Virus record (IMG/VR): IMGVR_UViG_3300020472_000030
Span: 1 to 56,874 of that record
Reading direction: 5' to 3' (one strand)
Source of the DNA: a virus
Taxonomy: Duplodnaviria; Caudoviricetes
Length of the DNA: 56,874 nucleotides
Made by a program: the position numbers and the translations under genes. Below, piece after piece: positions 17,634 to 22,814 of this stretch (the stretch's first letter is position 1; each line of letters starts with the position of its first letter). The notes beneath the pieces were generated by a model. It saw only the letters and a program-made list of their open reading frames with translations. It was not told where the DNA came from and did not search any database.

Positions 17634-18014
17634 ATGGACGGAACTAACTTTGAATTAGTTGGCGATTTTATGGAATCAATGGATCAAGAGGTCCGTATAA
17701 AGCCATCTTTTCCAGACGAGGGGATACAAAGACTTAGGCTAGACTTAATAGAAGAAGAACTAGATGAGCTTCAATATGGTATTGATAACAAGAGTTTAAT
17801 AGAAGTTGCAGACGCACTTACTGATCTACTGTACGTTGTGTACGGAGCAGGACATGCATTTGGAATAGACTTAGATGATTGTTTTCACGAAGTACATCGA
17901 AGCAATTTGAGTAAGCTAGGTCCGGATTTCAAGCCAATAAAAAGGGAGGATGGGAAGGTTCTTAAACCTGCCACATACTCCCCGCCTGATCTTCGTACTG
18001 TGCTATCTCTCTGA
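17634..18014 (+). CDS. MazG-like/PRA-PH NTP pyrophosphohydrolase
   Basis: LIEEELDEL, EVADALTDLLYV, EVHRSNLSK, REDGKVLK. Confidence 0.9.
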   Translation: MDGTNFELVGDFMESMDQEVRIKPSFPDEGIQRLRLDLIEEELDELQYGIDNKSLIEVADALTDLLYVVYGAGHAFGIDLDDCFHEVHRSNLSKLGPDFKPIKREDGKVLKPATYSPPDLRTVLSL

Positions 18015-18458
18015 ATAGAACAAGTGATCGCCTATTGTCGTTTTATGACTATAGGCGGAAGCCCAGTAGGGATTTACTTTATTATTATGATACCAATAGA
18101 TATCATCATCTAGTACTGGTTTGTCCTTATTCTTTATTCTTACATATGCTATCATGTAGCATAGATTATATACTGCTGCTTGTGCCGGTTTATCACTTAA
18201 ACCGTCGCAAAACCAACTAAACTGACAGATCCACTTTCTTCCCTGTACTCGTTTTCGTTGTTCCACTACTGCACAAATTGTACTCGGCCAGCGCGAATCC
18301 TTTACCCGATTTAAAGTTACGTCGGCGACTGCGTACATGCCTTGCACTGATTGATTCCGTGCTTCCCAATAAATATTCTTCGCTAGACATTTCACTTCGT
18401 CTGCCATTACCCAAGTACTGCTCGCCATCAGTCCGATGGCTAGTATTACTCCTCTCAT
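18003..18458 (-). CDS. SleB-like cell wall hydrolase (Hydrolase_2)
   Basis: CLAKNIYWEAR, VTLNRV, CQFSW, IGDHLFY; signal peptide. Confidence 0.92.
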   Translation of the reverse strand: MRGVILAIGLMASSTWVMADEVKCLAKNIYWEARNQSVQGMYAVADVTLNRVKDSRWPSTICAVVEQRKRVQGRKWICQFSWFCDGLSDKPAQAAVYNLCYMIAYVRIKNKDKPVLDDDIYWYHNNKVNPYWASAYSHKTTIGDHLFYSER

Positions 18459-19011: not shown

Positions 19012-19200
19012 CTAGATAAGTTCTGCCGCCATTTCGGACTTTCTAGTTTGTATCGCTTTCTTACGTTCGATCATCCAAAGAAAGATATGTGTTGGCATTT
19101 CCATTGTATTTCTACACAGTGTCATTGCCTCTTCCCACTTTAGACCATCTGCACACATTCCACCTACAATACAGAACCATTCAAATTGCTCGTCAGTCAT
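19012..19200 (-). CDS. hypothetical protein
   Basis: AGGAG RBS before ATG 19200 (MTDEQFEWF). Confidence 0.65.
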   Translation of the reverse strand: MTDEQFEWFCIVGGMCADGLKWEEAMTLCRNTMEMPTHIFLWMIERKKAIQTRKSEMAAELI

Positions 19201-19330
19201 ACGCTCTCCTGTGTTTGCGATAACCACGCTTCGACCTTTTCTTTCGGTCTGTCTCTTTTCTACTGCGAAAAGGGCTATCCGAATCAAAAAGGATAAAATG
19301 CGATCTTGTTTTGTTTCTCTTAATTTTCAT
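19193..19330 (-). CDS. 45-aa basic peptide, ArfA-like
   Basis: MKIKRNKTRSHFILFDSDSPFRSRKETDRKKRSKRGYRKHRRAYD; ATG 7 nt after -10 box; not in ORF track. Confidence 0.6.
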   Translation of the reverse strand: MKIKRNKTRSHFILFDSDSPFRSRKETDRKKRSKRGYRKHRRAYD

Positions 19331-19337
19331 ACTGCGT

Positions 19338-19378
19338 ATTATGTCACGATTTAGCTTACAAGTCAAGGATTATTTTTT
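19338..19378 (-). promoter_or_regulatory. promoter, extended -10 class
   Basis: TTGACT-N17 with TGA-CATAAT and upstream A-tract. Confidence 0.7.
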
Positions 19379-19452
19379 TCTTGTCCCTAGAAAAATGAAA
19401 AATATTTTTGTCAGGAGCAGCGCGCCCAGATACTTTCTTCAACTACATGCTC

Positions 19453-19492
19453 AAAAATAATACTTGTGTTATGCCAAAAAGTGTGATAAAAT
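19453..19492 (+). promoter_or_regulatory. promoter for candidate ncRNA
   Basis: AAAAATAATAC-TTGTGT-N17 with TGA-TAAAAT. Confidence 0.55.
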
Positions 19493-19498
19493 AATACT

Positions 19499-19740
19499 CA
19501 AATCGTAAGATGATCTAGTCAATCGACAACTTCTTATAACCTATGCTGGCGAAAAGAGTTTGAATATTTATGCAATTGGAGTGGAAGCGGAATTAAGGGA
19601 GCTTCCGTCTCCAAATCCATAATATTATGAAAAGTGCTCTTGAGTCAGCATAATCCCAAATCCTACCGATTCAATTTTAAGGAATCTCGACAACTATTAT
19701 GACCGCGTAAATTCGATACGGTCATAATACCCCGCCTTTT
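19499..19740 (+). ncRNA. candidate structured ncRNA (long rod with central bubble plus 3' hairpin)
   Basis: Nested inverted repeats 19503-19690, no substantial ORF, upstream promoter, 11-bp hairpin 19695-19729. Confidence 0.6.
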
Positions 19741-19829
19741 ATTCCTCCTATTTATCTAAAAATTCGTCTTAATTTTGTCCAATTCGCCACAATTCAAAAT
19801 TTTTTTACCCGTATTCCTTTTCCACAATT

Positions 19830-19931
19830 TTAAAAGATTGTACTTAAGGCCGTTAGCAGGATAAATATAGGTATGGTTATTATAGCGATCAGGGTTAACA
19901 TCTGTAGAAACTGTTCAATAAATTCATCCAC
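19830..19931 (-). CDS. 33-aa membrane peptide
   Basis: MDEFIEQFLQMLTLIAIITIPIFILLTALSTIF. Confidence 0.4.
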   Translation of the reverse strand: MDEFIEQFLQMLTLIAIITIPIFILLTALSTIF

Positions 19932-19946
19932 CCGTTGAGACCCCGC

Positions 19947-20030
19947 TTAAAGGTTTGTAAATGCGTGTAAGAATATAGCACCCGCAAAGATTACCAACCC
20001 CGCTACGACTATTAATTGCTCATCCCACAT
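19947..20030 (-). CDS. 27-aa membrane peptide
   Basis: GGAGG RBS; MWDEQLIVVAGLVIFAGAIFLHAFTNL. Confidence 0.55.
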   Translation of the reverse strand: MWDEQLIVVAGLVIFAGAIFLHAFTNL

Positions 20031-20319
20031 ATTCCCCTCCGTCAAATTCCTCTCCAGAATTTCGATTTTTAACTGTATTGTACCCATTTTCTTCATAAAA
20101 GTACCGTCCGTATTTAGCAATAGTCTGCCACTTTTTCTTTAGAACTGCGTCTCGGTTTACAATACCATGTTCAGTCATTAAGTGTATAAAAGCCATTACG
20201 TCCCCGCACTCTTCTTCTAACCTGCCTATCCATTCTTCGTCTTTGTGCCTTAAAACCTTCGCACAGGCTTGCGTTAGCTCACCACATTCTTCCATGAGCT
20301 TAATATAGACATTATTCAA
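20020..20319 (-). CDS. MazG-like nucleotide pyrophosphohydrolase domain protein
   Basis: LMEECGELTQA..K, LEEECGDV. Confidence 0.75.
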   Translation of the reverse strand: MNNVYIKLMEECGELTQACAKVLRHKDEEWIGRLEEECGDVMAFIHLMTEHGIVNRDAVLKKKWQTIAKYGRYFYEENGYNTVKNRNSGEEFDGGEYVG

Positions 20320-22376: not shown

Positions 22377-22415
22377 ATTATCTCATCAAAAAGCGGTCAT
22401 GTCAAGATATTTTTT
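22377..22415 (-). promoter_or_regulatory. promoter, extended -10 class
   Basis: TTGACA-N17 with TGA-GATAAT. Confidence 0.7.
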
Positions 22416-22814
22416 CCATTTCCTCCACATTTTTTTCTCCGCTTTTCGTGCTTCCACTTCCCAAGGAGCGCTCCAATAGTCTCCTTGAAACGACTTGCCC
22501 TTGAACATAGCAGGTCTACCTAAATCCAGTCCATCAAACTCATACTGCTTAACGTGAGTCATTTCGTGGAATACGGTCATAAGCGTCAGCCTATCACTAT
22601 AGCGATCAGATATACGAATTACATACTCATCGTCTAGTTGAAACGCATCACCAAATGCACTTTTAAATCGAGTGAGTACAATGGTAAGCCTATCACTAGC
22701 GATTGTTAAATCCCATAATCCGTACTGATCTACTGCCCAACAGGCTGCTCGATTCACGAGATCGCGCCTATGTGACGGCCAATAGCCTTTTTTAAATTTG
22801 GTTTTTATTCGCAT
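22386..22814 (-). CDS. zinc metallopeptidase-like protein
   Basis: HEMTH (HExxH) and downstream PWEVEA. Confidence 0.8.
   Translation of the reverse strand: MRIKTKFKKGYWPSHRRDLVNRAACWAVDQYGLWDLTIASDRLTIVLTRFKSAFGDAFQLDDEYVIRISDRYSDRLTLMTVFHEMTHVKQYEFDGLDLGRPAMFKGKSFQGDYWSAPWEVEARKAEKKMWRKWKKYLDMTAF

Follow-up and report, generated by a model that had tools for sequence, protein, structure and literature searches.

The viral contig IMGVR_UViG_3300020472_000030, a linear IMG/VR record of 56.9 kb with an estimated completeness of 59%, was analysed over all of its 56,874 nt (the window), and at positions 19499 to about 19806 of its plus strand it carries an element that is very probably a real structured RNA gene. 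What we observe there is a promoter of the T5 early type, a long rod whose pairs covary, the strand on which this rod folds, a family of relatives with a fixed genomic position, and the lack of a conserved reading frame. The best explanation as a whole is in our view a stand-alone structured noncoding RNA (ncRNA) gene of about 300 nt, which would be transcribed early in infection and act in trans by binding protein, and we give this explanation a probability of about one half. The source phage is an uncultivated, distantly T5-like marine siphophage; its large terminase (TerL) is nearest to T5-like phages of the Demerecviridae, with 49.5% amino acid (aa) identity, and the DNA runs that hold the stretch are labelled as marine, seawater or marine plankton metagenomes.

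A covarying rod on the promoter strand

Minimum free energy (MFE) folding of the plus strand between 19499 and 19740 gave -63 kcal/mol (z = -4.15), and 0 of 200 shuffled sequences folded as well. The pairings TATGCTGGC/GTCAGCATA (19542-50/19644-52), AAGAG/CTCTT, AATATT.ATG/CATAATATT, TTGGAG/CTCCAA and GGAAGC/GCTTCC, all of which a preliminary description of this DNA had placed correctly, are held in this fold as one imperfect hairpin of 111 nt, the rod P2 (19542-19652), with the 12-nt apical loop GGAATTAAGGGA at 19589-19600, again as described before. The MFE structure further contains the 11-bp hairpin at 19695-19729 that had been proposed downstream. The preliminary description had, in addition, extended the rod to 188 nt by outer stems around a 16x14-nt bubble and likened the whole to 6S RNA; the rod that we find supported spans 111 nt, and its largest internal loop measures 3+9 nt.

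Relatives were collected in several ways. A search with the neighbouring genes gave one (L002), whose MazG-like protein is 76% identical and whose non-coding stretch is about 96% identical, as counted on alignment A1, and which carries the pair GGAAGC/GCTTCC changed to GGAATC/GATTCC. A pattern for the rod apex found 12 viral loci and a pattern for the promoter 31, all 12 apex loci among them, together with at least 118 metagenome stretches and 7 matches in genome contigs; only one of these seven (L037) is a member, the other six being unrelated promoters, and it lies on a 3.4-kb contig binned with an archaeal metagenome-assembled genome, which was not taken as the host. Since the viral and metagenome contig collections overlap, we counted distinct sequences: the promoter was followed by at least 260 nt in 144 of 157 loci, which yielded 108 distinct sequences, from which 9 promoter-only look-alikes were dropped to leave at least 99 distinct members. 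Among cultured phages, none of 50,697 phage records was matched by the region in a blastn search, and a divergent member gave just six chance matches at E = 1. With regard to the host, a permuted tmRNA of alphaproteobacterial type lies about 2 kb from the element in one member (L015, 9014-9382, minus strand; 109 bits to tmRNA_permuted, ARAGORN tag GNDDIYDMAA); it could be phage-borne or part of flanking host DNA, and it is a hint at an alphaproteobacterial host.

The collection of relatives and the check for covariation, which the preliminary description had proposed, both came out in favour of a conserved fold: 99 distinct members were found, and the rod covaries in them. RNAalifold on 19 sequences of the main group predicted 36 pairs, 16 of them with compensatory changes. 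A covariance model of the 5' part and the rod (R1), built from 35 sequences, matched 89 of the 99 members (E<=0.01), once per locus and including members with an entirely different rod sequence. On the R1 alignment the rod has 29 consensus pairs. Standard pairing is seen in 97.7% of the 2301 cells, and 27 pairs show changes on both sides; 0 of 500 shuffles reached the observed pairing, and slid partners were paired in 37-46%. RNAalifold on the first 24 sequences in a sequence-only alignment returned just 10 pairs, and a scan of sequence-only alignments for stacked covarying columns picked out the rod helices only.

The same stretch folds on the minus strand as well (-64.2 kcal/mol, z = -2.77). 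Read as plus-strand RNA, however, the rod is paired in the 97.7% of cells given above, versus 91.8% for the minus strand, and 147 cells are G-U as against 10 that are A-C; because the G-U cells outnumber the A-C cells, the promoter strand is the folding strand.

A T5-type early promoter

A lone plus-strand promoter in a minus-strand region, followed by no gene, had been noticed before, and it is indeed there: the -10 hexamer TAAAAT is found at 19487-92, and no conserved open reading frame (ORF) follows it. The hexamer is preceded by TG at 19484-85, making an extended -10 (19484-92), and the -35 hexamer TTGTGT (19464-19469) stands 17 nt upstream; a simple promoter scan missed the site because this -35 matches at just 3 of 6 positions, and in relatives it varies (TTGACG, TTTTCT, TTGCAT). 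The promoter core ATGCCAAAAAGTG-TG-A-TAAAAT (19471-19492), a T5-type spacer signature with the extended -10, occurs once in the window and is present in 12 of the 12 loci that were found via the rod apex alone. Upstream of the -35 lies an A-rich, UP-like block (19450-19463), of which AAAAA is kept in 13 aligned members, and the same A-run precedes the -35 in annotated T5 promoters.

Thirty annotated T5 promoters served as the comparison set. They share the A-run, a TTGCTx -35, an ATGC-type spacer, TGnTATAAT and the transcript start ATAAATTGA; several have an ATGCC(C)AAAA spacer, AAATT occurs in the last 27 nt of 15 of the 30, and P13b reads TTGCTT-AATGCTTAATTTCTTG-TTATAAT-ATTTAT-ATAAATTGATGAGG. 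The layout of the new family is of this early type, with the A-rich block, TTGTGT-17-TGaTAAAAT in the window, the ATGCC spacer and a (C/A)(U/A)AAUUGA start. This T5-type layout accounts for the "conserved spacer" as well as for a large part of the conserved 5' motif, and it sets the transcription start at about 19499, a C 7 nt past the -10 that is predicted as the first nucleotide from the alignment with P13b (TATAAT-ATTTAT-ATAAATTGA). Promoters of this type are among the strongest known.

The segments around the rod

The outer stems and the bubble of the preliminary description did not survive comparison among the members. AATCG/CGATT is paired in 51.6% of cells versus 47.2% after shuffling (52.0% versus 44.1% on the sequence-only alignment), and on the sequence-only alignment of 98 sequences TCG/CGA reaches 85.5% versus 84.4% and AGAT/ATCT 58.7% versus 58.0%. 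This alignment is insensitive, with the rod base itself just 73% paired, yet the outer stems still show no sign of selection, and the MFE structure lacks them. The segments that were to form them are a local 5' hairpin (P1), linkers, and the 3' hairpins P3 and P4, while the two strands of the bubble, which is not conserved, are linkers that stand beside the rod and outside it.

P1 (19503-19526; UCG..GAU/GUC..CGA) has arms that vary by lineage, among them AUUGAU/GUCAAU, AAUCGU/ACGAUU, AUUGU/ACAAU and UGAUAGAC/GUCUAUCG, and 43 of 56 distinct 5' 32-mers form such a hairpin with at least 4 contiguous bp starting within the first 9 nt; the T5-type motif AAATTGA of the initial transcript overlaps with the 5' part of P1. 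The linker J1/2 (19527-19541), formerly the 5' strand of the bubble, is unpaired in the MFE structure and fairly conserved as a UUCUUAYNAAC-like sequence. On the other side of the rod, J2/3 (19653-19667), formerly the 3' strand, contains a conserved AUCCC box, and AAUCCC follows the rod in most members. Next comes P3 (19668-19686), a small hairpin GAUUC/GAAUC that is predicted for the subgroup of the window and is part of its MFE structure; in other subgroups its place is taken by hairpins of other sequence (CAAUCG/CGAUUG, AAUUAACACU/AGUGUCAAUU).

The box UCGACAACU (19687-19695) is found family-wide as (C/U)GAC(N)AAC. It is the second copy of a direct repeat whose first copy lies at 19523-19531, and the repeat of TCGACAACT at 19523 and 19687 reported earlier is present in the window; the 5' copy occurs only in the window's own and closely related lineages. 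The idea that the 5' motif and the P4 loop covary as direct repeats and offer one protein two sites was rejected (permutation p = 0.59), and the impression of a direct repeat arises because the 5' motif is itself palindromic (UUGAU.AUCAA). A pattern for the 5' motif matched only its own site in the window, and a degenerate motif pattern matched neither copy there and gave one unrelated match with one mismatch. A stem that would close the RNA by pairing its 5' end with the conserved 3' block, suggested by the full-length MFE structure, was likewise discarded, as it shows no co-variation (p = 0.40).

P4 (19695-19729), the 11-bp hairpin already mentioned, has an A/U-rich loop of 13 nt and appears in the RNAalifold structures of three subgroups as well as in the MFE structure. 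Its anchor is found in 72 of 98 members, which give 59 distinct forms, 39 of them with at least 5 contiguous bp, and the arms of a member pair better with each other than when swapped (5.46 versus 4.92 bp), a value that 0 of 5000 permutations reach. The loop reads GAUAAUCAAAUAA in most members and GUAAAUUCGAUA in the window, and in other subgroups it is closed by another long-range helix. The 5' segment complements the P4 loop of its own member better than the loops of others (p = 0.003 and 0.0007), and this complementarity suggests a tertiary contact between the 5' end and the P4 loop.

The RNA probably runs from about 19499 to about 19806, some 300 nt, and the end at 19740 given in the preliminary description is probably too short. 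P4 is followed by a C-rich, G-poor tail (19730-19771) that includes the start of a block conserved in nearly all members (19756-19788, CTAAAAATTCGTCTTAATTTTG...); positions 80-150 of the tail in the window (~19730-19799) hold 20 C versus 4 G, and the C/G ratio of the family is 2.0 there. A weak terminator-like hairpin, AUUUUG/CAAAAU with a 6-bp A/U-rich stem and U7 at 19800-19806, is predicted by folding at 19772-19806 as the probable 3' end, and 50 of 84 distinct tails have a run of at least five T at this position, compared with 325 of 1700 random windows. In the group of L003 a convergent gene ends at +297, and the similarity to L002 ends near 19840. It is from the conserved block, the T-run, the convergent gene end and this limit of similarity that we put the 3' end near 19806.

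Expression and coding potential

The preliminary description had recommended mapping to metatranscriptomes, and contigs from RNA libraries do cover the element, but their ends are ambiguous and they carry no strand. Six RNA libraries hold small shares of the stretch, and contigs of relatives lie over the element in four RNA libraries that were compared, from three studies. One contig of 301 nt spans 19494-19796, and the matching part of another, judged against L006-type sequence, begins at 19499; taken as transcript ends, such starts and ends are a weak hint. No weight was given to stretches that lack cover, since contigs of relatives cannot map to flanks as diverged as these.

No reading frame conserved across the members of the family was found. 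In the main group (L003, L004, L021, L027, L044 and others) an open plus-strand frame crosses the rod (...LCDWSGIGIKGDSISKPI.LLKV...); in the subgroup of the window it is moved to another frame by 1-nt indels, and it is absent where the rod sequence differs, so that we read it as a by-product of sequence conservation. A small peptide from a 20-codon minus-strand ORF behind AGGAGG was also considered and set aside, as the ribosome-binding site is not conserved in relatives.

Genomic position and neighbouring genes

From 1 to 25.4 kb the genes of the window lie on the minus strand and include those for a polymerase, a primase, a helicase and a ligase, and from 25.5 kb onward the plus strand carries the genes, among them those for terminase, portal, head and tail. 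The element is single-copy and has a fixed place in the early region, where 19367-19829, which has a MazG-like gene (20020-20319, minus) on one side and further minus-strand genes on the other, contains 0 ORFs of at least 30 aa. The element is antisense to both adjoining leftward operons and separates the end of one from the promoter of the next. In most loci of the family the nearest clustered ORFs on either side are on the opposite strand, and in 23 of the 23 loci with at least about 1.2 kb of downstream flank the element comes directly after the same convergent genes. No tRNA or tmRNA genes were found in the window.

Back to back with the promoter of the RNA stands a leftward promoter (19338-19366, minus; TTGACT-17-TG-CATAAT, 10/12 in the promoter scan), which belongs to the next minus-strand operon and is context, not part of the RNA. 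Its start would fall within a few bases of an ATG at 19330 (minus; region 19193-19366) that opens a very basic frame of 45 codons (MKIKRNKTRSHF...) overlapping the listed ORF 19012-19287; it could be a small gene translated without a leader, or else the next operon may begin elsewhere than the ORF list suggests. A second T5-like promoter (22844-22824, minus), with an A/T block, TTGACA, an AGATGC spacer and TATAAT followed by AGAAATTAAGGA, precedes the gene at 22386-22814.

On the other side, a segment of about 105 nt (19840-19947) in the interval from the RNA gene to the MazG-like gene is swapped for unrelated sequence in close relatives, as seen in the alignment with L002 and in one RNA-library contig that joins 19840 to 19947 via 105 other letters; judged from these sequences, the segment looks like a small swappable cassette. 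Just past the stop codon of the MazG-like gene (19930-20020), the DNA is well conserved with L002, yet the protein match ends at residue 86 of 99, and the end of this ORF may be mis-set or frame-shifted, either in the window or in L002. The region is flanked by two distinct nucleotide pyrophosphohydrolase-like genes, one PRA-PH-like (17634-18014, plus) and the other the MazG-like gene, and a gene for a SleB-type cell-wall hydrolase lies in the early arm at 18003-18458.

Discussion

A dedicated promoter, a covarying fold on the strand of that promoter, a family of 99 members, no match in Rfam and no conserved frame together describe a phage RNA of the kind that the preliminary description had offered as its second option, that is, another undescribed one. 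The nearest precedent is the set of orphan stable RNAs of T5, to which no homology was detected. In T5 (NC_005859, 30284-41566), eight misc_RNA genes are annotated whose function is unassigned or tRNA-like (RNAI, RNAIII, RNAIV, RNA2H, RNAX and RNA1-3), and some stand directly behind promoters of their own: RNA2H (172 nt) behind P13b, RNAIV behind P13a and RNAX (719 nt) behind P16-17. The new RNA resembles them in coming from a T5-type phage, in lying in the early region, in not being a tRNA by annotation and in having no assigned function, and like some of them it follows an early promoter. RNA2H also folds well (z = -3.02); it forms a closed three-way junction, however, not a rod, and the T5 RNAs are interspersed with tRNA genes and share the strand of the genes around them, whereas the new RNA is isolated and antisense to its neighbours. 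The R1 model gave 0 matches at E<=10 in the three phages searched, T5, Pectobacterium phage My1 and Vibrio phage X1, an empty result that shows little.

A survey of intergenic regions in IMG/VR (PMC10690425, 2023) reports 8495 unnamed candidates for structured RNAs (DNAVirus_X) of 29-151 nt with no function given. They come from the same source as our element and rest on the same kind of evidence, covariation in phage intergenic regions, and a piece of the element, most likely the rod, may be among them. No description of this RNA was found in the literature searched, and we consider it a new family among the orphan stable RNAs of phages, a kind that is already known. Folded RNAs with promoters of their own are encoded by other viruses and plasmids too: phi29 pRNA, ColE1 RNA II and adenovirus VA RNA serve as machine part, primer and protein decoy, respectively. 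These are functional analogies only, with no sequence or model match in Rfam and with different genome types and contexts.

We propose that the host sigma-70 RNA polymerase would start at the T5-type early promoter, at about 19499 on the plus strand, and that the transcript would fold into the 5' hairpin P1, the long bulged rod P2 and the lineage-variable P3 and P4, followed by the C-rich tail, until transcription ends at the weak hairpin and U-run that face the end of the convergent operon. The RNA would accumulate abundantly early in infection and might then act in trans as a stable scaffold or decoy for protein, with the bulged rod and the single-stranded boxes (AUCCC, CGACNAAC and the A/U-rich P4 loop) as the presumed binding surface and the C-rich tail as a further possible contact. 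The rod is regularly interrupted by bulges, a trait of other protein-binding RNAs too, and these would spare the RNA from RNase III. We infer that it is neither an antisense regulator nor a canonical 6S RNA; the trans-acting, protein-binding mode itself is put forward tentatively.

Several points weigh against this explanation. The statistics of the rod rest on an alignment fitted to the model, which favours the rod, and the members were gathered via two conserved patterns, so that the conservation of the promoter is partly by construction; the conserved 5' motif, in turn, may be promoter sequence only. The 3' domain differs among subgroups, and on the sequence-only alignment P3 is unsupported (54.1% of cells paired versus 52.0% shuffled), as are the P4 columns of the window, although neither hairpin can be judged on alignments in which even the base of the rod drops to 73% paired. 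The terminator is weak: a terminator scan of 19700-19850 called none, and the run of at least five T is missing in 34 of the 84 distinct tails. The RNA-library contigs are strandless, their ends are ambiguous and they may include DNA carry-over, and of the six that reach the 5' region four cross the promoter and two begin at 19494-19499. Finally, some loci have plus-strand ORF calls beside or over the element, and the near-identical L018, L019 and L026 have an 84-codon plus-strand ORF (+179..+431) that starts inside the 3' domain, an ORF not seen in other subgroups.

Among other explanations, a functional analogue of 6S RNA or of Ms1, which would bind the host RNA polymerase (RNAP), withdraw it from host or early promoters and so aid a switch between transcription classes, comes closest, and we nonetheless regard it as improbable. 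The new RNA has in common with 6S RNA (RF00013 and related) that it is driven by a promoter, does not code for protein, forms a bulged helix and measures a few hundred nucleotides; it is a long rod transcribed from a very strong promoter, the window contains no polymerase gene for transcription, and the phage would, like T5, depend on the host RNAP. Its ends could be joined around the linkers by the complementarity between the 5' end and the P4 loop. Ms1 is about 300 nt long. It is described as structurally related to 6S RNA and as binding core RNAP. Against this, the new RNA has no match to a 6S model, no conserved closing stem and no central bubble, nor does any internal loop of the rod approach one in size; it is also about 100 nt longer than 6S RNA and has extra 3' hairpins. 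Its flanks are strongly conserved in sequence, unlike those of 6S RNA, which is conserved mainly in shape. Rfam covariance searches gave 0 matches, to 6S or to any other family, in the whole window at the gathering score and none to 6S in 19300-19900 at E<=10, and 15 diverse members searched at the gathering score gave only tRNA and tmRNA matches elsewhere in their loci. In 19300-19900, the only Rfam matches at E<=10 were T-box and RUF20; the T-box leader was rejected as noise, with 17.2 bits (E = 0.16) versus a cut-off of 93 and without the bulge that defines the antiterminator. As the outer stems and the bubble are not conserved and no 6S model matches, the 6S architecture and the polymerase decoy of the preliminary description are not supported, and the idea that the RNA works like 6S becomes less probable. 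A non-canonical RNAP-binding RNA, whose ends would be held by the contact of the 5' end with the P4 loop and not by a closing stem, appears slightly less probable still; if true, it would mean that T5-like marine phages pull the host polymerase off one promoter class at the early-to-late switch.

We regard as just as improbable as a 6S or Ms1 analogue that the element is an origin or primer transcript, in which the promoter would fire into an A/T-rich stretch and the folded RNA would, as a persistent hybrid, prime or activate replication. Folded primer RNAs are known, and ColE1 RNA II and the R-loop origins of T4 are examples of priming or activation by hybrids. Such a role would fit a strong promoter that drives no gene and is placed between early genes and the operon toward the primase, helicase and polymerase genes, and it would also fit a conserved non-coding block with an A/T-rich stretch downstream. 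The U-run and the convergent gene end that come right after the RNA speak against it, and the GC skew does not change at 19.5 kb; its minimum at ~24-25 kb coincides with the divergent junction, and the skew mostly tracks the coding strand. No iteron-type repeats were seen, and two other motif patterns had no further copies, TCGACAACT itself not having been searched window-wide, while a T5 protein annotated as "replication origin binding" points to an origin initiated by protein.

A cis-acting insulator is a shade less likely. Promoter and terminator would block read-through between the leftward operons by collision, antisense pairing or bidirectional termination, and the RNA itself would have no job. 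The position of the element, antisense to both operons and precisely at the boundary where one ends and the promoter of the next stands, would fit such a device, and in some members an A-run takes the place of the T-run at the 3' end, which fits a terminator for the other strand. This explanation leaves unaccounted for, however, some 300 nt of structure that is conserved and covaries, with G-U pairs specific to one strand, as well as a rod whose shape is kept while divergent members replace its sequence. Least likely is an element of the DNA or of the minus strand. In the DNA it would be a single-stranded hairpin that serves replication or packaging, and in the leftward mRNA a hairpin that acts, for example, as a processing site. 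In its favour, covariation alone does not distinguish an RNA from the corresponding single strand of DNA, a fold is also predicted for the minus strand, and several RNA-library contigs cross the promoter. Against it, the pairing is better on the plus strand, which speaks against a minus-strand RNA, a conserved T5-type promoter stands at the right distance and in the right direction, and both the packaging genes and the two contig ends lie far from the element.

Returning to the stand-alone structured RNA gene as the explanation that we prefer, large, well-folded ncRNAs with strong covariation are rare, and very few phage examples are known. Promoter and RNA are together short enough to be synthesized and tested in laboratory strains without the uncultured phage. 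The RNA is a concrete candidate for the use of RNA, beyond proteins, by T5-type phages in the takeover of their hosts, and it may shed light on the stable RNAs of T5 itself.

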